Assembly (NCBI GenBank): GCA_018713605.1
Contig: DVOM01000018.1
Span: 6,557 to 70,556 of the forward strand
Direction of reading: 5' to 3'
DNA from: Candidatus Scatocola faecigallinarum
GTDB lineage: Bacteria > Pseudomonadota > Alphaproteobacteria > RF32 > CAG-239
Length of the DNA: 64,000 nt
The position numbers were made by a program, and so were the translations under genes. Below, one piece after another: positions 8,640-42,739 of this stretch (positions are counted from its first letter, which is position 1; each line of letters opens with the position of its first letter). The notes below the pieces were generated by a model. That model saw only the letters and a list, made by a program, of their open reading frames with translations, was not told the origin of the DNA and searched no databases.

Positions 8640-8911
8640 CCGCCGTTGACTATCTTGTCAAACAAAGTGTCGGAAAGCATCCGCATTTGGTTGAGCATAA
8701 ACGGAAAAAGCAGGATAAGCGTGAAAAAGACGCCGAGAATTTTCGGGACAAAAGCCAGCGTCATTTCCTGAATCTGGGTCAGAGCCTGAAAAATACCGAT
8801 TATCAGACCGATGAACAGCGCAACCAGCAGTACCGGGCTGACGACTTTTATCAGCGTAAAAATCGCTTCGCGGGAAATGTCCAAAACTTCTACTTCGTTC
8901 ATGTCGGTCAA
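8636..8911 (-). CDS. fliQ: Flagellar export apparatus protein FliQ
   Basis: 91-aa two-TM protein containing ALTQIQEMTLAFVPKILGVF (FliQ/YscS family). The fliQ-fliR-flhB order is the one known for Caulobacter-type operons. Confidence 0.9.
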   Translation of the reverse strand: MTDMNEVEVLDISREAIFTLIKVVSPVLLVALFIGLIIGIFQALTQIQEMTLAFVPKILGVFFTLILLFPFMLNQMRMLSDTLFDKIVNGG

Positions 8912-8912
8912 C

Positions 8913-18238: not shown

Positions 18239-18688
18239 TCAACGTGTTGCAGCGACCGCGTGGTCATAAAAGATTTTGAGAAATGCCGCAAGGCTTTCGG
18301 TTTCGATGACCGGGCGCAGGTTGATACGGTCGGTAACCGAATAAACGTTTTCGGCGCCGTCGTAAAGCAGGATGTTTTCCGATATGCGGCCGATAACCAG
18401 TTTGCGGATGAAATAGTCATAATTGAGATAATATTCGTTAACGGTTATAAGGTTCGGAAAAGTGTAGTTCCTTTCTTCACGGTAATGAGGGATTGAGCCG
18501 TAAAATTCGATGCCGTTGAAGATGAGGCCGTCGTTTAGTTTGAGAAAATTCCGATATTCGCCGGGAATGGCGGAAAAATTTCTGGCCGTAAGCTCGGCGT
18601 CAATCTTGGTCAGATTGGCGTCAACGGCCGGTTCGAAGACGACGCTGCCGGGCAATTGGCGGAAGTGGTTCAGATAACGGCTAATCAT
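18239..18688 (-). CDS. SUKH-superfamily (SMI1/KNR4-like) immunity-type protein
   Basis: Start trimmed to ATG 18688 (MISRYLNHF), which lies inside the last codons TATTATGATTAG of the upstream ORF. Pattern LTKIDAELTARNFSAIPGEYRNFLKLNDGLIFNGIEFYG...LVIGRISENILLYDGAENVYSV matches the SMI1/KNR4 layout from memory. Confidence 0.65.
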   Translation of the reverse strand: MISRYLNHFRQLPGSVVFEPAVDANLTKIDAELTARNFSAIPGEYRNFLKLNDGLIFNGIEFYGSIPHYREERNYTFPNLITVNEYYLNYDYFIRKLVIGRISENILLYDGAENVYSVTDRINLRPVIETESLAAFLKIFYDHAVAATR

Positions 18689-19304
18689 AATAAAACTTTC
18701 CTTCAAACCAGGGTAAGAAAATTTTTTTATGCAGGCGCAGAAAATTGTTTTCAATCTGCATGTCGATAATCCGATGAATGCCGGCATGATGCGGCCGGGT
18801 CTGAATCAGGCTGAAATTGTCGAAATCGAGACTGCCGCCGAAGTCGGCAGGAACTTTGAGATGAATGTTGTAGTTTTCCGGAGCGAAGCCTTCGCGCAGG
18901 CAGGCGATATCATTGTCGTTGAGGCCTGCGTAACGGCAGTCTTCGGCATCGGCATAGCCGATCAGTTTGAAAAAGCGGCTGCGCAGGTTATGATAACGGT
19001 CAAAAGAGCGGTTCATTTCCTGCCAGGATTGCGGCGCATATTCCTTTTCAATAATCCGGGTAGAGGCGGGCAGGCCGAATTCGGCAATTTTTTGCCTTAC
19101 CGTTTCGTACAAAGCTTCGGGGTCGGGGGCGGTTATTCTTTCGTCAACGGGCGTTTCGGCAATTTGAATGTCGCGAATGCGGCTCTGATAAGCCGAATAG
19201 CCGCTGCCGATGAGATCGTTGTATGCGGCGAGCAGGGATGCGGCGTTACGGTCCGTTTTTTCCGGGGGCTTTTTTTTGACTGTCCGGTTTGACCATTCCC
19301 ACAT
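18681..19304 (-). CDS. HNH/beta-beta-alpha-Me nuclease-like protein (toxin candidate), 207 aa
   Basis: Core NIHLKVPADFGGSLDFDNFSLIQTRPHHAGIH fits the pattern His - GG turn - N-hydrophobic-x-L-I - H-x3-H. It is a paralog of the core of ORF 37343-39184. Starts 23 nt after the virD4 stop. Confidence 0.55.
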   Translation of the reverse strand: MWEWSNRTVKKKPPEKTDRNAASLLAAYNDLIGSGYSAYQSRIRDIQIAETPVDERITAPDPEALYETVRQKIAEFGLPASTRIIEKEYAPQSWQEMNRSFDRYHNLRSRFFKLIGYADAEDCRYAGLNDNDIACLREGFAPENYNIHLKVPADFGGSLDFDNFSLIQTRPHHAGIHRIIDMQIENNFLRLHKKIFLPWFEGKFYYD

Positions 19305-19327: not shown

Positions 19328-21544
19328 TTATCCGTTGTCGCTTTCGTCGTCGTCGAACTCGTCGTCGCCGTCGTCGGCTTCAGGATCATAATCGATGCCT
19401 AGTTTGGCCAGCATGTCTTCGTTGATGTCTTCGCGCTGAGCGACAATCCAATCAGGAACGTACGGAGACGGCGGAAGCGCCGCCAGTTTTTTCATGGTCG
19501 AGTCAAGATACCAGCGCGGAGAATCGGCCATAATCGGCCGGTCGATGAAACCCTGCATCAGGACAACCTGTTTCAGCATCGGCAGGCTCAGCAGCTGGGT
19601 CGTACTGATGACCGAAGTACCCTGCAGCTGATAAGACACGTTTTTGGCGAACGGGTTGGAACCTTTGCCCAGGCCGCCTTCGTTTTTGGAATAGGAGGTG
19701 GTCTGCACGGTTTTGTTGCCGATCATTTTGGAAAAACGCTGGGCGGTTTGTTCGTTGTTCTGCGACAGAATGATTTTGCATGCGGTTGTGGAAATAACCG
19801 TTTCAAGGTCGTCCTTGCCGTATTTTCCCGAAATCTGACCGAGGTCCTGTCCGATAAGCAGATAAGAAACCTTTTGTCCGCGGCCGACCGCCGGGCCGTC
19901 AATAATCGCTTTCAGTTTCGGCATTTGCGGAAACTCGTCAAGGACGAACAGGCATGGGAAAGGCCCCATTTGTCCGTCGGTTTTGTTGACGAACTTCGGC
20001 GGGTTGGCAATCAGATAAGAAGACATAAGTTCAATAAATGTGCCGCTGATGACGCCCAGAGCGCGCGCGTCAACCTGGTTGACCGAAAGATATACCGAAA
20101 TCGGTTTCCATTCGCCGGTAATCGGATCTTTCATGCCGCGCAGGTCTTTAAATTGCAAATCGGAGAAGCTTGTTCTGGACACAACCGCCGAGTTCTTGAA
20201 AATGCCGATGCCGGCAAAACCGGTGGACAATACCGAACCGCGCTCTTTGTCCGGCATGGACGAAAGCTGGCTCAGCTCCGTGATGCAGCGCGGCGAATAG
20301 CCGAAGCGACGGGCTTCGTCGACGGCTTCTTCCAGCATGGTGCGCATCGGGTCGGACATGGCGGCCATCTGGTCGCCTTCTTCAATACGGCGTTTGATGT
20401 CCTGCGCCTGCTTAATCTGAGCTTCGGTAATCCATTCCAGAATCATCGCCAGACAGGATTCATGGCCAATCCATTTTTCCGGGAGCAGCTGCCAGGTGCC
20501 GATCGGCAGGTAGTTGTCGATGGTAATGTTATTGTTGCGCAGGTTCTGAATGGCGCGCGCCGACATCGGGTCGCGCATGTCCAGATAATAGCCTTCAAGG
20601 ACGCGTTTGTCCTCTTCGTCAAGCTTGCCTTCGTAAATGCGGCCGATGAAGTAGTCGTTGGCGCGGGCGCGCTCGCATTTGGAAGCAATAAAGTGAATGA
20701 AGCCGGTCAGTGCGGCACGGCCGGTTTTTGACCAGTGCGGGTCGGCGCCGCCTTTGGGGTCTTCGACCAGAATATTGCACATTGAGTCGACATACATGTC
20801 GCGATCCGGGCCGGGGGCGGGCAGAGCGTTCGGCGACAGCGGATTCCAGCTCGGGTAGTAAATTCCCTCGGCCGGGTTGTCTTCCGCGCCCCAGTTGATG
20901 ACAAAAACGGGACCGTCTTTGGCGCGGGCGCCGGTGGTGGAATAGCACAGTTCCGGTTTCGGGTCGTTGACAACGATGCTCAGGCCGTGCGAGTTGAAAA
21001 TGGTCGGAATGACCACGCCGACGGTTTTACCGGTGCCCGGAGGCGCGCAGCAAAGCGTGGAGAGGGTTTCCTTCAGCATCAGCAGCCGTCCTTTGTATTT
21101 GCCGACAACCATGCAGAAACCGTCAAACAGTCCCATTTTTTTGATGTCTTTATATTCGGCGATGCGGGCCGAACCGTGAATGTTGGACTGGAAACGGTAA
21201 GGATTGGTTACCGCACCGATGATCAGGCCGGCAGGCAGGGCGACAATCGGCAGAATCGGAAGCCAGAGGCTGACCGAAAAGCTGCCGTGATATGCCGAAA
21301 GCTGACGGAACCAGTTCCAGTAGCGGGAAAACAGATATGACGGGTTGTCGAAAACGGTGGAGACGAATTTGCCGACGTCATTCAGCGAATCTTTGGAAAT
21401 GCCCGAACCGATGAGATAGCCGAGCGGCATTGAAACAACCGCGAGTATGATGGTTACGATAAGGGTAATAACGACGGTCATTACCATCCACTGGACGGCG
21501 TGGTCGTATTCTTCCCATTCTTCTCCTCTTGATTTCAGAGCCAT
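19328..21544 (-). CDS. virD4: Type IV secretion coupling protein (VirD4/TraG family)
   Basis: Two N-terminal TM helices, Walker A CCAPPGTGKTVGVVIPT, Walker B CLFVLDEFPQMPKL, and LLIGQDLGQISGKYG. Unusual acidic tail PEADDGDDEFDDDESDNG. Confidence 0.9.
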   Translation of the reverse strand: MALKSRGEEWEEYDHAVQWMVMTVVITLIVTIILAVVSMPLGYLIGSGISKDSLNDVGKFVSTVFDNPSYLFSRYWNWFRQLSAYHGSFSVSLWLPILPIVALPAGLIIGAVTNPYRFQSNIHGSARIAEYKDIKKMGLFDGFCMVVGKYKGRLLMLKETLSTLCCAPPGTGKTVGVVIPTIFNSHGLSIVVNDPKPELCYSTTGARAKDGPVFVINWGAEDNPAEGIYYPSWNPLSPNALPAPGPDRDMYVDSMCNILVEDPKGGADPHWSKTGRAALTGFIHFIASKCERARANDYFIGRIYEGKLDEEDKRVLEGYYLDMRDPMSARAIQNLRNNNITIDNYLPIGTWQLLPEKWIGHESCLAMILEWITEAQIKQAQDIKRRIEEGDQMAAMSDPMRTMLEEAVDEARRFGYSPRCITELSQLSSMPDKERGSVLSTGFAGIGIFKNSAVVSRTSFSDLQFKDLRGMKDPITGEWKPISVYLSVNQVDARALGVISGTFIELMSSYLIANPPKFVNKTDGQMGPFPCLFVLDEFPQMPKLKAIIDGPAVGRGQKVSYLLIGQDLGQISGKYGKDDLETVISTTACKIILSQNNEQTAQRFSKMIGNKTVQTTSYSKNEGGLGKGSNPFAKNVSYQLQGTSVISTTQLLSLPMLKQVVLMQGFIDRPIMADSPRWYLDSTMKKLAALPPSPYVPDWIVAQREDINEDMLAKLGIDYDPEADDGDDEFDDDESDNG

Positions 21545-21571: not shown

Positions 21572-22834
21572 TTATGCTATGCTGCGAACGAGTTTTTTGA
21601 CCTTTTCAAATTTGTCTTTGTCAATATGCCCGCCGGCCTCTTCCAGCGTTTTGGAGAACAATTTTAGTTCCTTGGGTGTGCCCCTGTCAATCCTGGTAAC
21701 TGAAATATTCATTTCGTCCCAGGTTTCAAACATGTCTTCGGCATTGATAATATTGCCTATTTGAACAACGACGAAAGCCCTTATTTCAAAATTCATGTCG
21801 GACTCGGCCAGTTTTTCGGAAAGAATCTTGCGGGCAAGGTCAACTTTACGTACCGGCGAAATACGGTGGCTGCTTTCCGAAAACCACAGCGGTTCTTCGT
21901 CATTGAAACGTTCTTCGTCGGCCAGCCAATCGCCGGGTTCCTTATCGAGCAGACAGAGGTTTATCTGTTTGTCTGAGACGCCGATAAAGTCGATGACGCT
22001 GTTTTTGACGGTGGCGGCGGTGATGACTTCATAACCTTTTTGTTTCAGAACGTCGAGGGTGGAGTTTCCTGCCGGGCGGGGTTGTGCGGGAGACGGGGCA
22101 TCATTGCGCTGGGCGTTGTTTTTTTTGTCTTTGCTGTTTTTGCTTTTGGCCGGCGCCGGTTTGGGCGTTTCTTTCGGTTCCTCTTTGGGGGCTTCTGCGG
22201 GTTTGGCGTCGCTGAATTTTTTGTCGAACGAATCAAAGTCGAAATCAAAATCGTCATCCGTATCTTCGTCAAATTTAAACAACGAATGGTCAAATGTCGG
22301 GGAAACGGCCGGTTCCTCTTTTTTGGCGGCGGGTTTGGCCGGTGCTGCGGGTTTGGCCGAAGCGCTCAGTACGCCGGGACGAACCGGATCGCTGTAGTCG
22401 GTAATCGGAGCGCGGGTTCCGCGCGGGCGGATTTCCTTATAGGATTTTTTCTTCTTGACGACGGGGACGCCTGCGGTTTTGGCAATAATCTTGACCGGTT
22501 TATAGAAAAGGCTGCGAAAGGCGCGCATGGGAAAAAGAATGACGTTTAAGAATATTTTTCCCCACGGAATCAGGCTCAAAGCGGCCCAGCTGGTCAGCCA
22601 CAGCGGAATGAACGTAAGAATGATGAGCACAAACGCCCATTCTTTCGGATCGTCGATAACCCATCCGTCGTTCCATTTTTCCCAGGCATAGTTCCAATGT
22701 GCGGCATTAAAAATGTCAAAGCGCCAGTTGCGGAGCATAACAACCCTTATGCCTTCCAGGAAAAAGATACTCCAGAAGCATCCGACAAAAATGATTCTTG
22801 TTAAGATGAATAAGGGTTTCAAACTGTTCTCCAC
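21572..22834 (-). CDS. Hypothetical membrane protein: Trp-rich N-terminal module, Pro/Ala/Lys-rich and acidic linker, globular C-terminal domain
   Basis: 420-aa ORF ending 27 nt upstream of virD4. Its N-terminal roughly 110 aa are paralogous to ORF 22947-23441. Linker: AKPAAPAKPAAKKEE...FDEDTDDDFDFDFDSFD...KPAPAKSK. The C-terminal domain shows a NERD/PD-(D/E)xK-like pattern, VIDFIGVSDKQINLCLLDKEPGDW. Confidence 0.75.
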   Translation of the reverse strand: MENSLKPLFILTRIIFVGCFWSIFFLEGIRVVMLRNWRFDIFNAAHWNYAWEKWNDGWVIDDPKEWAFVLIILTFIPLWLTSWAALSLIPWGKIFLNVILFPMRAFRSLFYKPVKIIAKTAGVPVVKKKKSYKEIRPRGTRAPITDYSDPVRPGVLSASAKPAAPAKPAAKKEEPAVSPTFDHSLFKFDEDTDDDFDFDFDSFDKKFSDAKPAEAPKEEPKETPKPAPAKSKNSKDKKNNAQRNDAPSPAQPRPAGNSTLDVLKQKGYEVITAATVKNSVIDFIGVSDKQINLCLLDKEPGDWLADEERFNDEEPLWFSESSHRISPVRKVDLARKILSEKLAESDMNFEIRAFVVVQIGNIINAEDMFETWDEMNISVTRIDRGTPKELKLFSKTLEEAGGHIDKDKFEKVKKLVRSIA

Positions 22835-22946
22835 ATTTCCTGTTTTTCCGTCCCGCGGGCGGATTCTTCACCTTTATGACAGAGTATACTCTGAAATTGG
22901 TTAAAAAGTGTTTAGTAAATTGTTAACGCAACATTCTGTTCTGCCG

Positions 22947-23441
22947 CTATTTCTTTTCGGAGGCGGATATTTTCTCCTGAATCGAACGACGGATTTTTCC
23001 GGTTTCCTTTTCCCGGGGTTTGGCGCTTTCTTTCAAACGCTGTTCAATAATTTCTTCCATATTGGGTTTGCTTTTGGCTGCGCCCATGTTTTTAAGAATG
23101 ATACGCGGCGTGTTTTCGCCGTATTTTCTGATCATACGGTTGTTATACCAGGTAATCGGAAAGAGCAGGATTTTGACAAAGCTGAGACGGTAGAAAAAGC
23201 GCCAGCCCCAGAACCACAGCGGAATAAGCGCCAGCAGCATGCCGACAAAAAGGTAGTCCCTGCCGGTTTTGATTTTGCCGCCGCTTTCCCAGAAAGTGTT
23301 GATAACCTGCCAGTCGCGCATGTTCAGAATATCAAAGTTCCATATTGAAATCATTATTATCCGGGCTGCATAGACGAAGACGACGGTCCAGACGGCTCCG
23401 ACGATTGCGGCTTTGAGTATTTTAAATAATTTTCTTATCAT
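22947..23441 (-). CDS. Hypothetical small membrane protein, paralog of the N-terminal module of ORF 21572-22834
   Basis: RIIMISIWNFDILNMRDWQVINTFWE...LIPLWFWGW...LLFPITW aligns with RVVMLRNWRFDIFNAAHWNYAWEKW...FIPLWLTSW...ILFPMRA. ATGA overlap with the upstream ORF. Confidence 0.75.
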   Translation of the reverse strand: MIRKLFKILKAAIVGAVWTVVFVYAARIIMISIWNFDILNMRDWQVINTFWESGGKIKTGRDYLFVGMLLALIPLWFWGWRFFYRLSFVKILLFPITWYNNRMIRKYGENTPRIILKNMGAAKSKPNMEEIIEQRLKESAKPREKETGKIRRSIQEKISASEKK

Positions 23442-24934
23442 CTGCCTTCAGTTCCTATGCGCCCCAAAGCGGCGACGCCGGAGAGCGAGTCTGCCATGCG
23501 CTGATTGCGTTCGATGTTTTCAACCTGATGCCTTTTGTCTTTGTATATTTTGGTAAAGGTATCAATGTTTTCGTCGGTAAGGCCAAGTTTCTGTTTGAGC
23601 AGGGCGACGCGGTCGCGGCGCTCGTTGTTCTGGTCTTTCTGAACAAGGTTTGCGGCAAAGGCGCGATTGACTTCTTCCATGGAAGCGCTGCTGCCTTTGT
23701 CAAAGTCCATATCGGCAACGGCGGCTTCGTAGAGACCGCGTTTCTGTCCGGGTTCCGGCGTCGCGACCTTTTTCAGTTCGTCACTCAGAGCTACGACTTC
23801 CACGGCCAAATCGCCGCGCGGCTTTTTGTCCCGTTCGGTAAACTTGCGTTTGCTCATGGTTTTCTGCGCTTCTTTAACGGCGCTCTGAGAACTGTTAAAC
23901 AGTTTGGCGGCAAGTTTTGCCGGATTGCCGCCGTTGGCTGCCTCCATATCCATCCGGCGGGCAAAAAGCTGCATGGCGTGGGCTTTTTGTTTGTCAAACT
24001 CTGCCTTAAGGTCTTTGCCCTGATAATAGTCTTTATCTTTGGCTAAGTCGAGCGTCATGCCGGCGCGGGCATAGTTGGAGGCGAATTGCTCGGCGATGGC
24101 CATGTTTTCGTAAAAGTTTTTAATACCCTGTTCGGCAACTTTGAAAAACTGCTGTTTTTCTTTTTCATCCATATTGGCGAGCAGAACTTTGGTCGAATCC
24201 GAAACTTTGGCTTCGTTGAGTTTGCCTTCCTTAATCAGTTTCAGATTCTTGAGCTGTTCTTCCTGATGTTTGTCGATCAAATCGGAATTGGCCTGTCCGG
24301 AAGAAAGGGCATGGTCTTCTATCTGGTTGTAGCGGGTCTCGGTTTCATAGGTTTTGCCTTTTTCAATCTGTTTTTCGCGCATTCTTTCCAGCATTTTGCG
24401 CTGTGCCCAGTAATAGCCTTTGTCAAGTTTGGCCGCAGTTTTGGTCCAGAGCCAGTTGGCACCTTCCAGCAGCCAGTCCTCGTACATATATTTGATAACG
24501 TCTTTTTCCTTAAACGGACCTTTTTTCTCCGGATCGGGATCTTGGTTTTCGTCACCGTCCTTGGAACCGGCGTCGGCAATTTTTTTGTCGCCTTTTTTAT
24601 TCTGATCTTCTTTGGCTTTGTTGTAGACGGCCTGTTCGTCGACAGAGAGCAATCCGCGTTTGTTCTTTTCTTCCAGAATGTTCAGGTAATCCTGCTGTTC
24701 GCTGACGGAAAGCGTATCGTAAGTCGGCGTTTCGTTAACGTTGGCCGTGTTTTCCGGACCGTTGTTTTCACTGACCTGAGCGATTGGTTCGGCGGTATTG
24801 GCATTTTCCCGGGCAACGGGTTTGATTTCGGAAACCGTCGCGGTCGGTTCCGGACGGGGAGCCGGTGCAGGTTGCGGCGCGTCCGTGCGGGGCGTCTGCT
24901 GCGGTGTCGGGTTGGTGTTCTGGTTGTCTGCCAT
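23438..24934 (-). CDS. Hypothetical soluble protein: Pro/Thr/Asn-rich N-terminus followed by long charged helical (coiled-coil-like) regions
   Basis: 498-aa ORF with no TM helices, preceded by an AT-rich spacer (24935-25022). I recognise no family. Confidence 0.7.
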   Translation of the reverse strand: MADNQNTNPTPQQTPRTDAPQPAPAPRPEPTATVSEIKPVARENANTAEPIAQVSENNGPENTANVNETPTYDTLSVSEQQDYLNILEEKNKRGLLSVDEQAVYNKAKEDQNKKGDKKIADAGSKDGDENQDPDPEKKGPFKEKDVIKYMYEDWLLEGANWLWTKTAAKLDKGYYWAQRKMLERMREKQIEKGKTYETETRYNQIEDHALSSGQANSDLIDKHQEEQLKNLKLIKEGKLNEAKVSDSTKVLLANMDEKEKQQFFKVAEQGIKNFYENMAIAEQFASNYARAGMTLDLAKDKDYYQGKDLKAEFDKQKAHAMQLFARRMDMEAANGGNPAKLAAKLFNSSQSAVKEAQKTMSKRKFTERDKKPRGDLAVEVVALSDELKKVATPEPGQKRGLYEAAVADMDFDKGSSASMEEVNRAFAANLVQKDQNNERRDRVALLKQKLGLTDENIDTFTKIYKDKRHQVENIERNQRMADSLSGVAALGRIGTEGR

Positions 24935-25022
24935 TATTTTTGTCCTGTCAGTCTTTTAATTGTTTATATTCTAGCACTAAAATTCTTTTTTGTCTATATT
25001 TATTATATTTTCGCTAAAAGGT

Positions 25023-25994
25023 TTATGCCTTTATTTTCTTAAGGTAGCAGCCAAGTTCACGATTGACGCGGATACCGTCCTGCGGCGTCGGCTTTATCAG
25101 GCCGAAAAAACGGGGCTGAAGCTTGGACGTGTCAATCGGGGCGTAGACCGCGGGGTTGTTAATCAGCACCTGATAGGCGCCGTCAGGATCTTTCTGAGCC
25201 GTTTTGAAATAGTTGTTGACGAGCCGCTCGGCGTCGACGGGGAACTTTTTCTTCCGTATAGCCTCAATGTACCGTTGCTTGCGCTCAATGCGGCGTTGGT
25301 GTTCTTCGTAAATTTCACGTTCTATTTTGCGGCGTTTGGCCTTCAGACGGCGTTCTTCCAGAGCGATTTCGCAGCCTTCCATTTCAATCAGGATTTCCAC
25401 ATAGGAGATGACTGCCAGCTGGAGAATTTCATCTTCGCAGTGTTCGGCAAAGTCGAGCAGTTCTTCATCGGAGGCTTCGGGATTAAGGCCGGCCAGTACC
25501 GGGCCGTGAACCTTGAACATAATTTCCCAGCCCTTGACGGCGTCATCGGCGATCTGCGAACCTGTCCGATATTTGTAATGCGGCGAAAGAAGCGAAGCGT
25601 CGACGCGAAAGTCGGGCGCTTCGGCGTCATTCATTCCGGCCATCATAACGATGGCGTTGCTAAAGTTTTTGTAAGCTTCAAACAGGGCTTTTTCGCCCTC
25701 GTCAAGAACCGGTCCCGCGTTTTTGGGTGCCGCGGCCGGAGCGGCTGCGGGCGCAGGTGCCGGCGGTTCTTCCGTTTTTTCTTCAAGGCCGGTATCAACG
25801 TCTTCCAGTTCGGAACTGATGAATTGGTTTAACAGCCGTTCAAACTCGTCGTCTTCGGCAACTTGGTCGTCATAAGACTTTGTTTCTGCCGGCAGGACGA
25901 TATCTTCTTCGGGCGTTTCAACGGCGGGGCTGACCGGCGCGTTTTGCGGTTTCTTTTTGAACACTTTGATTTTCTTGGGGCTGTTTTCGCTCAT
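25023..25994 (-). CDS. Hypothetical protein with acidic N-terminus, a PAPAPAAAPAAAP linker and a helical C-terminal half
   Basis: 323-aa ORF, 9 nt downstream of ORF 26004-26285. I recognise no family. Confidence 0.7.
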   Translation of the reverse strand: MSENSPKKIKVFKKKPQNAPVSPAVETPEEDIVLPAETKSYDDQVAEDDEFERLLNQFISSELEDVDTGLEEKTEEPPAPAPAAAPAAAPKNAGPVLDEGEKALFEAYKNFSNAIVMMAGMNDAEAPDFRVDASLLSPHYKYRTGSQIADDAVKGWEIMFKVHGPVLAGLNPEASDEELLDFAEHCEDEILQLAVISYVEILIEMEGCEIALEERRLKAKRRKIEREIYEEHQRRIERKQRYIEAIRKKKFPVDAERLVNNYFKTAQKDPDGAYQVLINNPAVYAPIDTSKLQPRFFGLIKPTPQDGIRVNRELGCYLKKIKA

Positions 25995-28645: not shown

Positions 28646-29143
28646 TTAGTCTTTTTGGCGGTCAATGAGTTCGGTGCCCCAGTCTTCGGCCAGATGCGTC
28701 AGTTTGGCGTCGATATTCTTGAGCCTTTTCTGTGCCGAGGCTTTGGAAAGGAATATAAACAGATTGGGGATTTCATAATAAGCGACCAGTCCGAGTCCCG
28801 CCGAACCAAGCATGATAATCAGATTAAAAATGTCGCCGACGATGAAAAAGGCATTATGTATCGTAAAAGTGTTGATAATGCTCATCAGATAAATAAAGAC
28901 GCCGGCAAGGTTAAAACTGCCGACAATTACCAGTTTGTCGGTGTTTTTGGGGTCGGTAATCAAAATCGTAAAAGTCGGGAGCAGGCCGATAAGCAGAACC
29001 ATGACCGCCGGCAGGGTGCTGATGACGATGAACATCAGGCCGATGAACAGAATCATCTTTTGGACGACCGAAAGTTTGCGGTATGATTTTTTGAGGTTGG
29101 CCAAAGGTTTTTTGGTATTTTCTTTTTTCATTTGATTACCCAC
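28646..29143 (-). CDS. Hypothetical 4-TM membrane protein, translationally coupled to the kinase-like gene
   Basis: 165-aa ORF with four hydrophobic helices and a basic N-terminus. Overlaps the upstream ORF by 16 nt. Confidence 0.7.
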   Translation of the reverse strand: MGNQMKKENTKKPLANLKKSYRKLSVVQKMILFIGLMFIVISTLPAVMVLLIGLLPTFTILITDPKNTDKLVIVGSFNLAGVFIYLMSIINTFTIHNAFFIVGDIFNLIIMLGSAGLGLVAYYEIPNLFIFLSKASAQKRLKNIDAKLTHLAEDWGTELIDRQKD

Positions 29144-31170
29144 AGAATGAGGTTGAAGACGAAAGAAGCCAACATGACCATGATGGCCAGAATGGACGTG
29201 AACCGGATGGCCAGACTGCGGGCTTCTTCATCCATTTTATAACTGTTGTTAACCAGCTTGTTTTTTTCGGCCAGCAGAAAGTTGATGTCGCTGACGGCTT
29301 TTGTGTAGTTGGCCTTGTCCTTGTTGCGAGCCTCTTCGTTTTCGAGAATGTCGCAAAGTTCGTGCAGTTTGCCGTTTTTGTTGATTTTGAGAAGTTCGCG
29401 TTCCAAAAACTTCTGGTATTTCAGGTTATGGTAGCTTTTGATGATTGCAACCGAAGAACTGGCCAGCCATTGAGAAAGGTGGGGCAGCTGTGCCGGACCG
29501 AATTTGTTTTGCATGCTGGTATACAGGCGCAGAATGGCGCTGGCCTGCAGATAATCCTTACCTGAACCGAGGTCGGTAAGAATACCGTCGATTTTTTTGC
29601 CCATTTTGCAACGCAGGTAGGCAATGATGTTGCGGTCGTAAGGCATGCTCTTGACAATCTGCCGGGCGTAGGTGTTGTCCAGCGCGCGCAGTATCCGGGT
29701 CGGCGAATTGACGAATTCGTCGCCGAGCAGCGGACTGACACAGGGAATGTCATCGTCGAAGTCATACATGATGCGATCAAGGCCGTAACCGATGTCCTGA
29801 CGGTTGATGTATATGCGGAATTCGGCGGCATTGGCCGGCGAACGCATGTGTTCCTGTTCCAGATACCAGAGCTTTATCAGTTCGGAAGAAAACAGTTCAT
29901 GAAAAACCTTGGTGTCGGAGCCTTTGCGCAAGGCATAGAAAATGGCTTTCGGGGCGCCGTCGGGAAAAAGGCACAGGTCGCGGAGACGGAGAGGCAGCTC
30001 CGGCGCCAGCATGATGCTGATTTTAGCAATGATGACGTCAGTGCTGGTCGAGCCTTCCGGCGAAGCCGTGAGCATTTTTTCGATTTTGCCGGCCAGTTTT
30101 TCATTTTCAAGGCCGTTTTTAATCCAGTCGAGCAGTTTTCCCGAGCGTACGAGTTCGTATGCTTCCTGCGGCGCCGCACTGATGGCGATGGCAAAATCGC
30201 GTGCCGCGTAGAATTTTTCGCCGTTGAAGGAGATGGTGCGCTTGGGGCGGTCGGTTGTGCCGCTGCTGGTGTAATTGTTTGATTTGCCGTCCAGCAGATT
30301 ATAGGCCTGGACGTAATTGAGGCGCGCATCGACGTTATCGTTGAGCAGGCTGCGGAGAACGGGCGAAATCTGGTTGGGGATTTTGTCGTCGCCGAGCAGC
30401 GCCTGATAGCTGCCTTTTTTCTGCTTGATGCGCAGGAGTTCGGGCGTGCTGATGTCGCCGCCGAGTTCATGTCCGAGGTAAAGCGCGGTCATGACGGCGC
30501 CGATAGCATAAATGTCGTTTTTTTCGCTGCCGTTGCCGCGGCCTTCCGGTATGGACAGCATGTCTTCGATCGTTTCGTAAGCGGCCGGTTGGTAGAAGGC
30601 CGGAAAAGAAGCGGCACAGTCGCCGATGAGGATTTCGGTTTTTTCGGCGTTGGCATAATAAAGGTTGTCGGCGCGGATGGCGCGATGGGTAATGTTGTAG
30701 TTTTTGAGAGCTTCAACGGCGGAAAGCAGGCTGATGAGCGTGTTCTTGAACTTTTCGGAGCTGCGGATGTCCAGTTCGGTTTTGCCGCCCTCGAAAACTT
30801 TGCCGTAGGGGATTTTATAAATGAGAGCCAGATTGCGCGACTTTTCGGGCAGCCAGGTAACGATGCCGAATTCGACAAGTTTCATCAGGCTGCGGCATTC
30901 GATGGATTTGACATAAGGAAGAATGGTCGAGCGCGGGCAGGTGGCGTTGCTGCAAAGCAGGGCAAAAAGGCCGCGTTTGGTATCTATGCGGTCTATGACG
31001 CGAAAGGCTTTGGCGCCGTTGCTGTCAAGCCAGGGTAGCGGCTGGGCGTAGTCTATTTCGTATCTTTCCTTGACCAGAAATCTGTTGGCTCCGATTTCGC
31101 TGCTGCTTTCTGCAGGTTCCGCGGTGTTTTCGGGAGCCGTTTCCGGGGCTTCGTTTTCTTCTTCTGCCAT
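29128..31170 (-). CDS. Tail-anchored protein with a Hanks-type Ser/Thr kinase fold, predicted catalytically degenerate (pseudokinase candidate)
   Basis: Catalytic loop ITHRAIRADNL has HRD changed to HRA (codons at 30664-30693). DFG position reads IGDCAAS, APE position reads SIPEG, subdomain IX reads NDIYAIGAVMTALYLG. No clear GxGxxG loop. The C-terminal TM is ILAIMVMLASFVFNLILWVI. Confidence 0.7.
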   Translation of the reverse strand: MAEEENEAPETAPENTAEPAESSSEIGANRFLVKERYEIDYAQPLPWLDSNGAKAFRVIDRIDTKRGLFALLCSNATCPRSTILPYVKSIECRSLMKLVEFGIVTWLPEKSRNLALIYKIPYGKVFEGGKTELDIRSSEKFKNTLISLLSAVEALKNYNITHRAIRADNLYYANAEKTEILIGDCAASFPAFYQPAAYETIEDMLSIPEGRGNGSEKNDIYAIGAVMTALYLGHELGGDISTPELLRIKQKKGSYQALLGDDKIPNQISPVLRSLLNDNVDARLNYVQAYNLLDGKSNNYTSSGTTDRPKRTISFNGEKFYAARDFAIAISAAPQEAYELVRSGKLLDWIKNGLENEKLAGKIEKMLTASPEGSTSTDVIIAKISIMLAPELPLRLRDLCLFPDGAPKAIFYALRKGSDTKVFHELFSSELIKLWYLEQEHMRSPANAAEFRIYINRQDIGYGLDRIMYDFDDDIPCVSPLLGDEFVNSPTRILRALDNTYARQIVKSMPYDRNIIAYLRCKMGKKIDGILTDLGSGKDYLQASAILRLYTSMQNKFGPAQLPHLSQWLASSSVAIIKSYHNLKYQKFLERELLKINKNGKLHELCDILENEEARNKDKANYTKAVSDINFLLAEKNKLVNNSYKMDEEARSLAIRFTSILAIMVMLASFVFNLILWVIK

Positions 31171-35954: not shown

Positions 35955-35986
35955 AGAGGTTCTGTTTTATCAGAACCTCTTTTTTT
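35955..35986. terminator. Bidirectional intrinsic terminator between the SPFH gene and tsaC
   Basis: AGAGGTTCTG-ttttat-CAGAACCTCT with a flanking A-run and T-run. Confidence 0.85.
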
Positions 35987-36932
35987 AAGCCTTGTATGAA
36001 GCGCGGCGGATGCGGTCGTTGATGGCCAGTCCCAGTCCGTGTTCGGGAACGGGCGACATGGCAAGTCCCGTATAACCGGGAGCAGCATCGGCCCGACGAA
36101 GAAAGGCAAAGAGATTGGCGGCCGCTTCGCGGAGATCTCCGGCAGGGCTGAGGTTCAGGTCGCAGTCGGCGATTTTGCCGAAACCGATGAAAAACTCGCC
36201 GGGTTGGCGGGTCGCGGCGTTTATGCGCAGCGGGTGGTTGGGGGCATAATGTTTGAGCAGCTGTCCGGGAGCGCTGGGCTGGTTGGGATTGCCCTGCGAA
36301 AGCAGAACTTTCTCGTTGAGGAATTTTTCCAAATCTTCTTTTGATGTGCCGCCGGCGCGCAAAATGACCACATTTGAGCCGGTAACGTCGATGATGGTTG
36401 ATTCAACGCCAACCGCGCAGGGGCCGCCGTCCAAAATCATGTCGACCTTGTCGCCGAGACTGTCGAATACATGCTGTGCCGTGGTCGGGCTGATGGATTT
36501 GAATTTGTTGGCAGAGGGCGCGACAATCGGCACGCCGCTTTTTTTGATGAGATCCAGAGCGACCGGATGCGCCGGCATGCGAACGGCTATGTTGGGCAGG
36601 CCGGAACAGGCCAGGTCGATAGCCGCGTTGTTGTCGCTGCGTTTGAGCACCATGGTCAGCGGTCCGGGCCAGAATTTCCGGGCCAAAGCCATAATGCGTT
36701 CGTCGGTCCGGGCATAGGTTTTCAGAAAATCGGTTTCGGCAATGTGGGAAATCAGCGGGTCGAAAAACGGGCGCTGTTTGGCTTCGAAAATTCTGGCAAC
36801 CGCCGCGGCGATATAAACGTTGGCGCCGAGACCGTAAACGGTTTCGGTCGGCATGGCGACGAGACCGCCGCTTTTGACGGCCAGCGCCGCCCGTTCAAGA
36901 TTATGTTCGTCGGGTTGAAAAATGTTGTTCAT
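35985..36932 (-). CDS. tsaC: L-threonylcarbamoyladenylate synthase (Sua5/YwlC/TsaC family, long form)
   Basis: YrdC-domain motif GGLVAMPTETVYGLGANV plus a C-terminal Sua5 domain (315 aa). Confidence 0.85.
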   Translation of the reverse strand: MNNIFQPDEHNLERAALAVKSGGLVAMPTETVYGLGANVYIAAAVARIFEAKQRPFFDPLISHIAETDFLKTYARTDERIMALARKFWPGPLTMVLKRSDNNAAIDLACSGLPNIAVRMPAHPVALDLIKKSGVPIVAPSANKFKSISPTTAQHVFDSLGDKVDMILDGGPCAVGVESTIIDVTGSNVVILRAGGTSKEDLEKFLNEKVLLSQGNPNQPSAPGQLLKHYAPNHPLRINAATRQPGEFFIGFGKIADCDLNLSPAGDLREAAANLFAFLRRADAAPGYTGLAMSPVPEHGLGLAINDRIRRASYKA

Positions 36933-36935: not shown

Positions 36936-37346
36936 CTAAATCTTCAAAATGTGCAGGATTGCCGGTTCAATGTCCGAATATTCTTCTAGCACTTCCATAT
37001 CTTCTTTGTCAATGATTTGATACCGCCGGCATTCGGCATTGTAAGCCAGATAGTCGAATTCGTCGCGGCCGAGTATAACAAGTTCGGGGCGGCCGGAAAA
37101 AGGACTCATTTGGTTGGCCGGGACAATGTCGAGGAAAATTCGCCCTTCGGGAGCAATGCCGAAAATGCCTGCACCGTCGTAGGAAATGCCGTTGCAACGG
37201 TGTAAAAACTCCAGAAAACCTTCGGGAAGCGGGGCGTTGCGGTTTTGAGCCAGTTCTTTTTGAGCCAGAATTATTTTTTGGACATTTACCGGCTTGCCGA
37301 GGTATCCGGGACGGATTTTGCGCAGGCGTTCAAAAAGCCGGTTCAT
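36936..37346 (-). CDS. SUKH-superfamily (SMI1/KNR4-like) immunity-type protein, second copy
   Basis: QKELAQNRNAPLPEGFLEFLHRCNGISYDGAGIFG...LVILGRDEFDYLAYNAECRRYQIID. ATGA overlap with the upstream HNH-like gene. Confidence 0.6.
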   Translation of the reverse strand: MNRLFERLRKIRPGYLGKPVNVQKIILAQKELAQNRNAPLPEGFLEFLHRCNGISYDGAGIFGIAPEGRIFLDIVPANQMSPFSGRPELVILGRDEFDYLAYNAECRRYQIIDKEDMEVLEEYSDIEPAILHILKI

Positions 37347-39184
37347 CTTTTGCCTCTCTGTGCACGCAGCGTGTATTGGATGAGTTTTTCGAACTTCTGT
37401 TCGTCTTCAAACTGGCTGATGGTTTTAATGGCGGATTTCTTGGCGGCACGCAGTGCCAGATATTGTTTGCGTTTTTCAATCAGCTCGTTGCGAAGGCTGA
37501 GGTATTCGTCTTTTTTGCGGGAGATTTTTTCAATGCGTTTCAGCAGCCCTTTCGGTTTTTTTCTTTTTTGTTTGGGGAGCGCTGCTTCTGCGGCAGCGGT
37601 TTGTCCTTTTTCTTCTTTTTTTGGCGGCTGCCGGGTTTCCGGTTGGGTTTGAGTCTTCGTTTCCGTAATTTCCTGCAAAATTTTGCCGAGTTTTTCCTGT
37701 TTTTGTTTCAGTTTTTTCTGCTGTTTCTTTTCGCGGCGCGAAATTTTGGCTTTGGGCTGCCAGTATTCGTCGCTTTTTTCGAGCAGGAGCTGTTTGCTGC
37801 GGAAAGAGTCCAACGCTTCTTTGTTGTACTGTTTGTAATGCGTTTGTCCGAAGTCGCATTCTATTTGGAAAAGTTTGTTGAAACCGCCGTAGAACGCAAG
37901 GTTTTCGCCGATTTCGATGCGGGAAACGTAGTATTCGGCGCCGTTGACCATGCCGGTCCGGTCAAGAGAGTGGGCAAAGAAGTGATAGGGCTCGATAATC
38001 AGGCAGAGGTTTTTGAATTGGTTTACTTCGGCAAAATTGGTCTTTTCGCCGCTGTCCTGAACGGCGACCTTATGATGTACGGTAAGTTCGGGTCCGGTAA
38101 CCGGATTGCCGTTTTCGTCCCGGGCCAGAATGACGCTGATGAGCCCGGCGGCACGGATGCCGGCCGCCTGTCCGTCGGTTATCGGATCTCCGGCGCGGGT
38201 TTCTTCGGGAATAAGTTTGCGCTTTTTCAGCGGTTCCAGCATTTCCTGCGTATAATTCGTTTCAAGGACGTCAAAACCGCCGGTTACGCCGTATTGTTCC
38301 ATGTGGCGGATGAGCGTTTCGGTATAGCGCGGGTCGTAACCGCGCAGTTCCATGATGCGGCGCAGCGATGTCTTGTTGCGGCGGATAAAGGCTTTGACAA
38401 AACGGTATTTGGCTCCCAAAAACAAATTAGCCCGCTCATCCTTTTCGGCGTCGGGCTTGCTTTTGGCAATATAGCGGTTGTAGAGTATCTGAGAGAAGTC
38501 GTAGGCATTCAGGCGCTTGAAGTCCTGAGGCGAAATGCCTTCCTTTATCAGCAGCTCGGGAAGGTTGCGTTCCAGCAGCCGGAAACTGCGAAACTGCCGG
38601 AAGACCGTCCAGGACGGCGACTGGCTCAAATCGTAATCGGCGGGTCTGACGCCGGCGGTTTTTTCCGGGTTTCGCTGCCGATAGGTTTCGGAGAGCTTTT
38701 TGGAACTTTTGCCGTCTTTCTTTTCGTCGATTTTATCGACCGTGCCGTAAAAATCCATGCGGATAATATGTTTTATTTCGCGGGGCAGAGCGTAGTGGCG
38801 CTTGTTGATACATTTCATGCCCCAGGCGTGGAGCTGTCCGGCCAAATCAAGGCGGAGCTGTTCGCGCGCGTCGTCCTCGGTTATGTGCGAGCGGGCGGCA
38901 AACTCGCGGACAAAGCTTCCCTTGTAGAGGTTTTCGATATCGGCCTGAACGATGGTTGCGGCGTTTTTCTCCAGCATGAGAATATCGTCACAGGTTTCGG
39001 ATATCTTGTTTTGATAGAAGCTGTCAAAACTGTTGATGTCGCTGTGCGGGGCGGCGGCATTTTCGTCGGGAATGGGAAGGTTTGAAGCGGTAATGGAGTC
39101 GAGAATCCGGTCAAGAGAAAGGTCTGCTTCGTCGACGAAGTCAGGAAACGCATCGTTTAATTTCTCCACTCGTTTCTTAGCCAA
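37343..39184 (-). CDS. Large HNH/beta-beta-alpha-Me nuclease-like protein with a lysine-rich C-terminal tail (toxin/effector candidate)
   Basis: Core at aa 368-405 (about 37970-38080) is LTVHHKVAVQDSGEKTNFAEVNQFKNLCLIIEPYHFFAH, fitting HH - SG turn - NL.LI - H-x3-H. Tail aa 476-613 is Lys/Arg/Gln-rich (KAKISRREKKQQKKLKQKQEK...KQKRKKPKGLLKR...RAQRGKR). Confidence 0.6.
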   Translation of the reverse strand: MAKKRVEKLNDAFPDFVDEADLSLDRILDSITASNLPIPDENAAAPHSDINSFDSFYQNKISETCDDILMLEKNAATIVQADIENLYKGSFVREFAARSHITEDDAREQLRLDLAGQLHAWGMKCINKRHYALPREIKHIIRMDFYGTVDKIDEKKDGKSSKKLSETYRQRNPEKTAGVRPADYDLSQSPSWTVFRQFRSFRLLERNLPELLIKEGISPQDFKRLNAYDFSQILYNRYIAKSKPDAEKDERANLFLGAKYRFVKAFIRRNKTSLRRIMELRGYDPRYTETLIRHMEQYGVTGGFDVLETNYTQEMLEPLKKRKLIPEETRAGDPITDGQAAGIRAAGLISVILARDENGNPVTGPELTVHHKVAVQDSGEKTNFAEVNQFKNLCLIIEPYHFFAHSLDRTGMVNGAEYYVSRIEIGENLAFYGGFNKLFQIECDFGQTHYKQYNKEALDSFRSKQLLLEKSDEYWQPKAKISRREKKQQKKLKQKQEKLGKILQEITETKTQTQPETRQPPKKEEKGQTAAAEAALPKQKRKKPKGLLKRIEKISRKKDEYLSLRNELIEKRKQYLALRAAKKSAIKTISQFEDEQKFEKLIQYTLRAQRGKR

Positions 39185-39325
39185 AACTTTTCTCGTTTGT
39201 CAGAAATTATTTATTTTGTCTAAATTTTACATTATTTTTTTGATTTTTACCAGTTTAAATTAGGGTTTTGTTATTTATTTCTGTGTATAATCTGCAAAAA
39301 GTTTACCATTGTAGGGGGAAGACGT

Positions 39326-40816
39326 ATGCTCGAGATAATTTTCAATAGAAAATGCACGGAAAAGTGCGATGTGAAAGTCATCGGGCTGGCAGAAAAGCAG
39401 AGTTTTTGCGACTCGGCTTTTGTGAAATTTTTGGACAAAGAGGAGTGCCGGATTCTGCATCAGGCGATTAAGGCCGAAAATTTTACGGGCAAAAGCGGCA
39501 CCTGGGTTGACAGCTATTCCGCCAAAGGGCGACTGATAGCCGTAGGTCTGGGCTGCCGGCCGCAGAAGCTTGATTTGCGAAAAACCGGCGGACGCCTTGT
39601 GCGCCGGCTTTCAAAAAACCGGGTGGCGAAATTCTGGGTCGGCGACGTCAAGGGCTGCCGCCTGAGCCAGGAGGAAATTGCGCATAATGTTGCTTTCGGC
39701 ATGCTGCTGGGGTCCTATCGTTTTGACAAATATTTTACCAGAAAACCGGCAGAAGACTATCCGGTTCTGGAGAAGGTTTATTTCGACAGCGCTGAAAAAG
39801 ACAAAATCTCGCTGGGGGATTTTGTGGATATGGCTTCTTTGGCCAACGCGGTGCGCTATGCGCGTGACCTGGTCAACGAACCGGCCAATTTTCTGACGCC
39901 GGAAGCCTTTGCTTCGGACGTAGAACGGCTGCGGTATCTGAAACTGGACGTGGAAATTCTGGATGAACGGGAACTCCGCAAGCAGGATTTCAACATGCTG
40001 CTGGAAGTTGCCAAAGGTTCGGAAGCCAGGCCCCGGGTCGGCGTGATGATATGGCACGGCGACAAGCGCCGCAAAGAAATGGATGCGGTGCTGGTCGGCA
40101 AGGGCGTAACCTATGATGCCGGAGGAATTAACCTGAAAGACCGCAAGAACCTGACGAATATGTATGCGGATATGGCCGGTGCGGCCGCCGTTGCGGCAAC
40201 AATGAAGTCAATTGCGCTGGAGCGCCGAATGGTAAACGTGGCGGCAGTGGTCGGGCTGGTAGAAAACATGCCTTCCGGCCGGGCGCTGCATCCGTTTGAC
40301 GTTATCCGGTCAATGTCGGGACAAACGGTCGAAGTGACGAATACGGACGGCGAAGGGCGCCTGTTGCTGGCCGATCTGCTCTGGTATGCGCAAAAGCGTT
40401 TTGAGCCGGCGCGGATAATCGACATCGCCACGTTGACCGGAACCGTCGCTTATGCGCTGGCCGGGCAATATGCCGGAATTTTCGGCAATGACAAAAAGCT
40501 GATTGCCGCGTTGACCGAAAGCGGCGCCGAGTGCGGCGAGCCTTTGTGGGAACTGCCGCTGAACGATGAATTTGACAAGTGGATTGATTCGGACGTCGCG
40601 GACATGAAAAACGTCGGCAAAGACGTTGGCGACGGCTCGCAGGCGGCGGCTTTTCTGCAACGCTACATTCGGAAAGGCGTCAGCTGGGCGCATATCGACA
40701 TGGCGGATATGGAGATTGCCGGCGAAGATACGGCGTTGTGCCCGAAAGGGGCGACCGGTTTCGGCGTGCAGCTGCTGAATCGGTATCTTAGAAATCTGGA
40801 ATCGGAGAAAAAGTAA
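39326..40816 (+). CDS. pepA: Leucyl aminopeptidase (M17)
   Basis: VGKGVTYDAGGINLK, and NTDGEGRLLLADLL (the NTDAEGRL signature). Confidence 0.9.
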   Translation: MLEIIFNRKCTEKCDVKVIGLAEKQSFCDSAFVKFLDKEECRILHQAIKAENFTGKSGTWVDSYSAKGRLIAVGLGCRPQKLDLRKTGGRLVRRLSKNRVAKFWVGDVKGCRLSQEEIAHNVAFGMLLGSYRFDKYFTRKPAEDYPVLEKVYFDSAEKDKISLGDFVDMASLANAVRYARDLVNEPANFLTPEAFASDVERLRYLKLDVEILDERELRKQDFNMLLEVAKGSEARPRVGVMIWHGDKRRKEMDAVLVGKGVTYDAGGINLKDRKNLTNMYADMAGAAAVAATMKSIALERRMVNVAAVVGLVENMPSGRALHPFDVIRSMSGQTVEVTNTDGEGRLLLADLLWYAQKRFEPARIIDIATLTGTVAYALAGQYAGIFGNDKKLIAALTESGAECGEPLWELPLNDEFDKWIDSDVADMKNVGKDVGDGSQAAAFLQRYIRKGVSWAHIDMADMEIAGEDTALCPKGATGFGVQLLNRYLRNLESEKK

Positions 40817-41947: not shown

Positions 41948-41980
41948 AGAACCGCGTCCCGGTCAGGGAGGCGGTTCTTT
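41948..41980 (+). terminator. Hairpin terminator candidate for the aminopeptidase operon, overlapping the 3' end of the convergent gene
   Basis: AGAACCGC-15 nt-GCGGTTCT followed by TTTG. The T-run is weak. Confidence 0.45.
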
Positions 41981-42739
41981 GCCGACGGAAACGGACAGCC
42001 CTTCCGCAAAACAGTAGCCTTTTTCCGGCGAATCCGAAACGACATAATACTTTTTGTCGCGCAGAAAGCCTTTGCCGGGCGGGACGGGCTGCCAGTTGAG
42101 CGTATTGAAGTCATACATGTCAAACAGCACGTAATCGTCGGTAAAGGCAGCCAGCAGACGGAATTTGTTGGCTTCGCATCTGATTTTCCAGACCGGAATA
42201 ACGTAGTTTTCGCATTTGGAAAATTCAGTGTTGAGCCTGCCGTCGTTGATGATGGTGCATTTGTTCAGCGTGGCGCTGAGCGGTTTTTCTCCCCAGACCA
42301 TGGCGACAAACTTGGCCATTTCTTCGTTGTCGATATACGCGAGGGAAAATATGGTCCAGTCTTCGAGTTTCTGTCCGTCGATTTCAACGGTTTCGTATTC
42401 GAAACAGAAGATTTCCTCGTCACAGACGAAAGTCGTGCCGGCGGGAATTTCGCAAAGCAGGCGGATGTCCCTGTAAGGCGCATAGCTTTCTTTGTGATAA
42501 AAAGCCGGAATGGTAATTATGCCAAAGGTTCCGGCATAGCAGACCCATTGAATGACGCGCAGCTGTTCGGGCGGTTTGGAGCCAATGAACAGTTTGGGCA
42601 GCGGTTCGGTACGAGTCAGCAGGGTTAATCCGAGAACAATCTTACCGTAATAACCGTTTCGGGCGAATTCCTTTTTGGCGGCGGACCACGATTTGAGCAT
42701 GCAGAAATCGTCGGTCGGGCGCAGATACTTTTTTTCCAT
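41963..42739 (-). CDS. Hypothetical protein
   Basis: 258-aa ORF with a coherent, soluble-looking protein sequence. I recognise no family. Confidence 0.6.
   Translation of the reverse strand: MEKKYLRPTDDFCMLKSWSAAKKEFARNGYYGKIVLGLTLLTRTEPLPKLFIGSKPPEQLRVIQWVCYAGTFGIITIPAFYHKESYAPYRDIRLLCEIPAGTTFVCDEEIFCFEYETVEIDGQKLEDWTIFSLAYIDNEEMAKFVAMVWGEKPLSATLNKCTIINDGRLNTEFSKCENYVIPVWKIRCEANKFRLLAAFTDDYVLFDMYDFNTLNWQPVPPGKGFLRDKKYYVVSDSPEKGYCFAEGLSVSVGKEPPP

Follow-up and report, generated by a model that had tools for sequence, protein, structure and literature searches.

A putative YhhZ/YrhA-type nuclease and inhibitor gene pair at a fixed chromosomal position in uncultured gut Alphaproteobacteria

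Two coupled genes, encoding proteins of 613 and 136 amino acids (aa), lie among housekeeping genes on contig DVOM01000018.1 of Candidatus Scatocola faecigallinarum (GenBank assembly GCA_018713605.1), and they raise the question of whether a toxin-type nuclease and its inhibitor have settled there and, if so, whether the nuclease leaves the cell. We analyzed a stretch of 64,000 nucleotides (positions 6,557 to 70,556 of the forward strand), hereafter the window; the 613-aa gene is called X, the 136-aa gene Y, and residue numbers refer to the X protein. X and Y would together form a nuclease/inhibitor pair of the type made up by the YhhZ C-terminal domain and YrhA, a core-genome fixture of a gut and rumen clade of Alphaproteobacteria in which X acts as an exported effector; we assign this reading as a whole a probability of roughly 0.5. 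Its parts differ in strength. X is probably a nuclease with Y as cognate inhibitor, while for the export of X the odds appear close to even.

Gene X (37343–39184, minus strand) begins with a TTG start codon and encodes three parts, namely an N-terminal domain, an HNH toxin-type domain and a basic tail; alignment with its homologues begins at residue 1. Gene Y (36936–37346, minus strand) encodes an acidic YrhA-family (SUKH-type) protein and is translationally coupled to X. The X stop and the Y start share ATGA at 37343–37346, where the DNA reads "...GGC AAA AGA TGA" and "ATG AAC CGG", as had been claimed in an earlier reading of this DNA (the original prediction).

Residues 256–450 of X (37835–38419, minus strand) are homologous to the HNH toxin domain at the C-terminus of YhhZ and Bacillus/Cytobacillus LXG proteins, and comprise pre-HNH helices, a His-Me finger and a beta-sheet. 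We compared a broad X profile (93 sequences) with a toxin C-terminus profile containing YhhZ, two LXG C-termini and the family of a 207-aa paralogue encoded elsewhere in the window; hhalign joined the two over X 256–411 (96.9%, E 1.9e-10). By hmmsearch, the broad X profile matched each of the three known toxin C-termini (YhhZ and the two LXG proteins) at E 2e-10 to 7e-10, including that of the Bacillus subtilis LXG toxin at 6e-10, and comparison of the X domain profile with YhhZ gave 86.5% (E 4.6e-6). Values for the 207-aa family were 96.7% against YhhZ by hhalign (E 3.4e-10) and E 1e-18 to 5e-23 against the three toxin C-termini by hmmsearch, with 5e-23 for the B. subtilis LXG protein. In a tblastn search of plasmid records, the 207-aa protein matched the C-termini of Bacillus/Cytobacillus type VII secretion system (T7SS) LXG polymorphic toxins, and the matched toxin genes are followed by genes that the PGAP annotation names "YrhA family protein". 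The B. subtilis LXG toxin (L046) was not equated with YokI of strain 168, as toxins at that locus are polymorphic.

The C-terminus of YhhZ, NYNVHHKLSLDDGGTNDFENLVLIENEPYH, resembles both X and the 207-aa protein, and its HNH core aligns with that of X (VHHK...GG...N..NL.LI..EPYH), the loop between HH and N being ~7 residues longer in X. In Escherichia coli K-12, yrhA overlaps the end of yhhZ ("putative endonuclease YhhZ") by 4 nt; the downstream gene belongs to the same NCBIfam family (YrhA) as Y, and the 4-nt overlap recurs in both organisms. YhhZ is an Hcp-family type VI secretion system (T6SS) effector with a C-terminal His-Me finger (PMC5714182), and toxins of the Hcp-HNH type break down target DNA and are paired with cognate immunity proteins (PMC6099711). 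We liken YhhZ to "Hcp-ET" type effectors, and K-12 YhhZ may fall into one clan with Hcp-ET1, for which there are experiments; YhhZ itself reaches PF01844 at E 0.005 only. The architectures differ. YhhZ brings its own N-terminal Hcp domain for T6SS delivery and carries the toxin domain at its C-terminus, whereas in X the toxin-type domain is internal, lying between a different, undescribed N-terminal domain and a basic tail of 163 aa. The Bacillus/Cytobacillus toxins with their YrhA family proteins belong to the same toxin-domain and immunity families as X–Y, but they have an LXG N-terminal domain, use T7SS delivery and are found in Gram-positive hosts, where prophages or plasmids carry them in polymorphic form, whereas X–Y is chromosomal, non-polymorphic and syntenically fixed in Alphaproteobacteria.

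The His-Me finger core of X, LTVHHKVAVQDSGEKTNFAEVNQFKNLCLIIEPYHFFAH, spans residues 367–405 (37970–38086, minus strand); the original prediction had the string right and its position, 368–405, off by one. In the AlphaFold2 (AF2) model, strand 367–371 (LTVHH), strand 393–397 (LCLII) and helix 400–406 (YHFFAHS) follow the order of a beta-beta-alpha-metal finger. H370, H371, N388, H401 and H405 are each at least 90% conserved in 93 diverged X-family sequences, a level also attained by R142, G147, Y184, W192, D229, F255 and G299. The five finger positions are candidate catalytic and metal residues, with roles that we assume by analogy to colicin E7/E9 (general-base His, hairpin Asn and metal ligands). 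Structure searches returned no such fold: Foldseek found no match at E<0.5 and no HNH structure at E<1 with the full AF2 model against PDB and BFVD or with a domain-only model against PDB. The top BFVD match, named "HNH endonuclease" (E 0.53, prob 0.05), was not used. Because Foldseek gave no HNH fold, X is placed in the His-Me finger group by its motif and by its profile-level homology to YhhZ/LXG. Curated HNH models of Pfam and NCBIfam likewise did not match X, 16 isolated HNH-like domains or the 93 family members; PADLOC gave no match for X, and a PDB sequence search with three X profiles gave noise only (DNA ligase 3 at E 1.4 and designer PPR repeats through a short "MKEKG" match). Tox-REHH, another deeply divergent HNH toxin with SUKH partners (bioRxiv 10.64898/2026.09.22.753552), is cited only as an example that toxins of this kind can go unrecognized when searched for by fold.

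The toxin-type domain is embedded in a larger protein. Residues 1–54 (39023–39184, minus strand) form an acidic leader that is poorly conserved (net charge −7) and predicted to be disordered (predicted local distance difference test score 37–50), and no Sec-type hydrophobic stretch was seen in it. Residues 55–255 (38420–39022, minus strand) form a family-specific helical N-terminal domain with the motifs HYxLPREIKHIIRMDFYG, YDLxxSPxW and NAYDFS; this is the best-conserved portion and the strongest family signal in distant relatives, and it has no match in Pfam, PDB or Foldseek. Residues 451–613 (37343–37834, minus strand) make up a K/R-rich, mostly helical tail (net +26) that ends in RAQRGKR. 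The AF2 model is confident for residues ~55–445 and renders the tail as long helices. An RNAse_A_bac match of the tail (E 0.052), the only Pfam line, was dismissed as low-complexity noise. Exhaustive profile search (E<=1e-3, clustering at 50% identity) yielded an X family of 193 clusters, 65 of them below 1e-30, and a word-indexed search with X found 50 relatives, metagenomic without exception. With Pfam matches in 0/93 members scanned, X is, by these searches, a member of an undescribed protein family that is in no curated library. Short members of ~370 aa consist of the N-terminal domain and the finger only. At the other extreme, in variants of ~1000 aa at the same pepA / X-Y-sua5 locus (L038 6001–9099; L031 8001–10970; L033 7689–10649; protein P0050), an insert of ~450 aa separates the HNH finger from the N-terminal domain and carries the pre-HNH helices in additional copies.

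Y contains both LPEGFLEFLHRCNGISYDGAGIFG and DYLAYNAECRRYQIID, the strings for which the 136-aa product had been called SUKH-like. It matches NCBIfam NF038335 ("YrhA family") with E 1.3e-14 and 54.4 bits, slightly under the curated cut-off of 55 bits. A Y profile matched a B. subtilis protein that PGAP names YrhA family (E 1.8e-14), and comparison with E. coli YrhA gave 81.8%. Pfam matches of Y to SUKH_6, SMI1_KNR4 and SUKH_5 all fall under the gathering score; 6 of its 18 orthologues match SUKH_6 (best 1.3e-5) and 5/18 match SMI1_KNR4. The protein is acidic (isoelectric point 5.4), and the median net charge of its family is −7.5. As holC often follows pepA, DNA polymerase III chi was considered for Y, and was abandoned once the YrhA match was found. 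Compared with the SUKH-superfamily immunity proteins of nuclease toxins (Zhang, Iyer and Aravind 2011, PMC3113570), Y is alike in being small, acidic and encoded directly after an HNH-type gene and in sharing the N-terminal "LPxxFxxFLxxxNG" motif; unlike them, it reaches the Pfam SUKH models only below the gathering score, and its assignment is sequence-based.

A second pair of the same kind is present in the window. The paralogous 207-aa toxin-type gene (18681–19304, minus strand), directly downstream of a VirD4 gene, encodes a protein nearer than X to the YhhZ/LXG HNH toxin domain. Its companion is a YrhA-family gene within a 182-aa open reading frame (ORF; 18239–18787, minus strand), the true start of which is probably the ATG at 18690–18688 (MISRYL...); it matches NF038335 with E 1.2e-17 and 64.2 bits, above the cut-off. 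The kinship of the two pairs had been proposed from shared motifs and was to be checked by pairwise and profile alignments, which gave different outcomes. Direct BLASTP of X against the 207-aa protein was not significant (E 0.45), that of Y against the 182-aa ORF was marginal (5e-4), and Pfam gave nothing for X or the 207-aa protein and sub-threshold SUKH matches only for the two small ones. Profiles, on the other hand, were significant: the X domain matched the 207-aa family (52%, E 1.4e-4), and the Y profile, run against all six-frame ORFs of the window, found the 182-aa ORF at E 9.4e-10. By these profiles and the matches to NF038335 and YhhZ/LXG, an HNH-type X and a SUKH-type Y are both kin of the second pair, and the two pairs fall into a single clade of toxin domains and a single immunity family; of the two toxin domains, that of X is the more diverged. 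The flanking similarities that had also been proposed did not hold, since the profile alignment places LR..M..L.GY elsewhere and stops short of FYGGF/WFEGKF (FYGGF begins at X residue 431). A profile search of the window ORFs revealed no third such pair.

In the window, and likewise in a relative of 48% identity, the VirD4 gene is directly followed by the 207-aa gene; the relative keeps the whole cluster (four Pfam-less genes, VirD4, and genes of 200 and 154 aa). The most distant homologue (186 aa, 40% identity) and its SUKH partner stand directly after rpmJ with VirD4 not adjacent (L044 8001–9018; also L045), still beside window-type neighbors such as S11 peptidase, MipZ, phosphoglucomutase and flagellar export genes. 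The tie of this pair to VirD4 is therefore not obligatory. All 24 aligned members of the 207-aa family begin with an invariant MWEWS, and 24/24 have Leu, Ile or Met (NxH[LIM]K) in place of the second His of the HH pair in YhhZ and X. As the usual HNH general-base His is missing, the 207-aa paralogue may be inactive or may use another base.

We then examined where X–Y occurs, using one genome per GTDB species. The scan returned 27 X loci, all in uncultured Alphaproteobacteria from human, chicken, yak, deer or reindeer gut or rumen. The gene order pepA (divergent), X, Y, sua5 is kept at every one of these loci where the contig extends that far, over identity ranges of 75% to 28% for X, 82% to ~30% for Y, 91% to 67% for Sua5 and 87% to ~37% for PepA. 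X is an intact single ORF at 27/27 loci and Y is present at 24/27; of the other three, two contigs stop just past X and one (L023) has no Y. Y also follows X in L037 and L038. Metagenome contigs of X members at 60%, 41% and 35% identity, and of a 1032-aa variant, have the same order, and tblastn of X against plasmids found no homologue. In one relative (L001 4470–5857), the pepA call is split into two ORFs of 316 and 144 aa, which reflects a frameshift or an assembly error.

The surroundings in the window agree with this arrangement and with the placement of the pair between tsaC and pepA in the original prediction. The sua5/tsaC gene (35985–36932, minus strand) starts 3 nt past Y and is the probable third gene of an X-Y-sua5 operon; a terminator-like site was looked for at the Y–sua5 junction on the minus strand and none was seen. 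Because the genes overlap or are 3 nt apart and no such site intervenes, X and Y are probably co-transcribed with sua5, an essential gene of tRNA modification. On the other side, an AT-rich divergent intergenic region (39185–39325) with promoter-like hexamers on both strands, consensus matches only, separates X from the divergent pepA (39326–40816, plus strand), and an M29 aminopeptidase gene comes next. With the order around pepA, X, Y and sua5 fixed in 27 species loci and no plasmid homologues, X–Y is a vertically inherited core-genome pair and not a mobile or dispersed cassette. This speaks against the earlier proposal that toxin cassettes are dispersed in this genome, if mobile or variable cassettes are meant, the more so as the second pair is likewise syntenically anchored, in one lineage without adjacent VirD4.

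The basic tail bears on the question of export. Residues 476–613 contain 43 K+R against 17 D+E (net +26, isoelectric point 10.4), and all three strings cited for their extreme basicity are present, KKQQKKLKQKQEK from residue 486, KQKRKKPKGLLKR from 538 and RAQRGKR from 607. Across the X family the tail varies from 4 to 163 aa in length, and the positive charge lies at the very end: the last 30 residues have a median net charge of +4 (n=92, with 77/92 at +2 or above) against a median of 0 in internal windows of the same proteins, and 89/93 members have K or R within the last five residues. The VirD4-type coupling protein (738 aa; 19328–21544, minus strand; Pfam T4SS-DNA_transf, 1.1e-56), encoded 16 kb from X, has a conserved acidic C-terminal tail, DDGDDEFDDDESDNG, as originally described; its last 30 residues have a net charge of −14 and those of a relative −12. 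The 207-aa paralogue beside VirD4 has no basic tail (median +1 in the last 30 residues). VirD4 is the end of a conserved cluster (21572–25994 and 19328–21544, both minus strand; L034 1357–7988), with four genes before it (323, 498, 164 and 420 aa) that have no match in Pfam, NCBIfam or PADLOC; the 164- and 420-aa proteins have alike N-terminal membrane segments.

Positive charge marks the C-terminal signals of VirB/D4 substrates such as VirE2/VirF of Agrobacterium and the Beps of Bartonella, and effector/immunity pairs of the type IV secretion system (T4SS) that kill bacteria are known as X-Tfe/X-Tfi in Xanthomonas/Stenotrophomonas. X resembles T4SS effectors in lacking a Sec signal, in the net positive extreme C-terminus and in the effector-plus-immunity layout, and the paralogous 207-aa/182-aa pair sits directly downstream of VirD4. 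It differs from them in having no BID or XVIPCD domain, and the scanned ORFs of the window, ordinary chromosomal genes (EptA, Hda, FlhB, FliR, MipZ, sigma factor, RelA/SpoT, MurC/D, PFOR), included no VirB component. Charge complementarity between the X and VirD4 tails is a candidate contact on which these data are neutral; a positive C-terminus fits a VirB/D4 signal and also a DNA-binding arm. We regard VirD4-dependent export of X as doubtful. It is somewhat less probable again that the X family is a new class of type IV-secreted nuclease effectors of commensal Alphaproteobacteria in gut and rumen, in which an acidic-tailed VirD4 would recognize the positive C-terminus, Y would confer immunity and co-transcription with sua5 would lock the pair in.

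In the model that we favor, X would be made in the cytoplasm without a Sec signal, and residues ~256–445 would fold as a His-Me finger (HNH) metal-dependent DNase, in which H371 would be the general base, H370, H401 and H405 would bind the metal and N388 would be the Asn that stabilizes the hairpin. Acidic Y, translated off the same message through the ATGA overlap, would bind and block the HNH domain in the producer. X would most likely be exported against neighbors without Y, the positive C-terminus being the best candidate signal and a type IV route the leading candidate.

Several observations weigh against this model. A polymorphic toxin system (sensu Zhang et al. 2012) combines an N-terminal trafficking domain with a variable C-terminal toxin domain that is swapped between strains; X differs in having no trafficking domain, no domain swapping and a fixed locus. 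None of the usual trafficking domains (Hcp, PAAR, RHS, LXG, filamentous haemagglutinin and the like) was found in X or 93 relatives. The toxin-type domain lies inside the protein, not at its C-terminus, and does not change from one family member to another. Strict synteny, vertical inheritance and an operon with essential sua5 are atypical of conflict cassettes, and no genes of a secretion apparatus turned up in the scanned ORFs of the window. Searches of Pfam, NCBIfam, PDB sequences and Foldseek gave no significant HNH match for X or for its domain model taken alone, and the homology rests on profile comparisons that were picked via the YrhA lead. Finally, some lineages have X without Y. L023 (species-level genome BRZ_CI__bin98; 7725–10166) encodes an 813-aa X with intact HNH residues and no Y gene, as do, with no Y nearby, the very distant members at L042 7001–8920 and L040 267–2462 (639 and 731 aa). 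The L023 protein has a ~200-aa tail insert and extends to 88 bp before sua5; clusters P0047 (815 aa) and P0026 (810 aa) have the same architecture. As to the distant members, one lies beside clpB in a genome with ankyrin-repeat and MORN-repeat proteins and the other beside adk/secY, and the X family may reach intracellular symbionts.

The chief rival is that X is an intracellular, non-exported nuclease held in check by Y, serving toxin–antitoxin addiction, anti-phage defense or DNA processing, with the tail as a non-specific nucleic-acid-binding arm. Much of the preceding evidence speaks for it: the position is strictly kept in 27 species while X identity falls from 75% to 28%, co-transcription with an essential gene is likely, X has no recognizable trafficking domain and no plasmid copy, VirB genes are missing from the ORFs scanned, L023 and the distant members have no adjacent Y, and a tail of 4 to 163 aa is what a loosely constrained basic arm would be expected to show. 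However, all characterized or annotated relatives of both domains belong to exported polymorphic toxins (T6SS Hcp, T7SS LXG), PADLOC gives no match, and the charge is focused at the extreme C-terminus in 89/93 members, which DNA binding alone would not need. We regard this main alternative to export as possible but unlikely.

A less probable version is that of the original prediction, in which X–Y is a second dispersed effector/immunity cassette and X is brought to type IV translocation through contact of its lysine-rich tail with the acidic tail of VirD4. Membership of both pairs in the same toxin and immunity families, the conserved acidity of the VirD4 tail (−14, −12), the family-wide positive C-terminus of X and its fit to the signals of VirE2/VirF and Beps are all in keeping with it. 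Yet both pairs are syntenically fixed rather than mobile, the paralogue that actually adjoins VirD4 is the one without a basic tail, its most distant homologue adjoins rpmJ with its partner, and VirD4 stands amid Pfam-less genes with no VirB among the window ORFs scanned. This version appears improbable.

That X is no nuclease at all, HH...N...H...H serving instead as a metal site with a structural role in some scaffold or housekeeping protein, and Y as an adaptor or chaperone like the non-immunity SUKH proteins Syd and Smi1/Knr4 (PMC3113570), is very unlikely: the global fold of X matches no nuclease, the large N-terminal domain dominates the family signal and some members have no Y nearby, but the conserved residues, in kind and order, fit the His-Me finger signature and line up position by position with the HNH toxins YhhZ and LXG, and the specific match of Y is to YrhA, the family that goes with these toxins.

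Both domain families and their pairing are already known, and HNH-nuclease/SUKH-immunity modules are familiar as swappable tips of polymorphic toxins. What is new is the host protein family of X, in which a toxin-type domain is set between an N-terminal domain and a basic tail; new, too, are the confinement of this family to a clade of gut Alphaproteobacteria that are uncultured and its fixed place in a housekeeping operon. If X is an exported effector, the pair would give a first handle on competition among these abundant uncultured commensals and on the role of their orphan VirD4; should the T4SS-effector reading be true, it would mark a bacteria-killing or host-directed system outside the Xanthomonadales and Bartonella/Legionella paradigms. 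If X is not exported, X–Y would be a conflict module domesticated into the core genome. Lineages that keep the HNH residues without Y offer a natural test of X self-toxicity, and the family, with its 193 clusters, conserved N-terminal domain and five catalytic-type residues, merits a curated model.

Two further neighbors without a Pfam match are conserved. A 258-aa ORF past the M29 peptidase gene (41963–42739, minus strand) has 65–85% identity in close relatives, and a 680-aa ORF (29128–31170, minus strand) has a homologue in L038 with a recorded Pkinase (protein-kinase) match.

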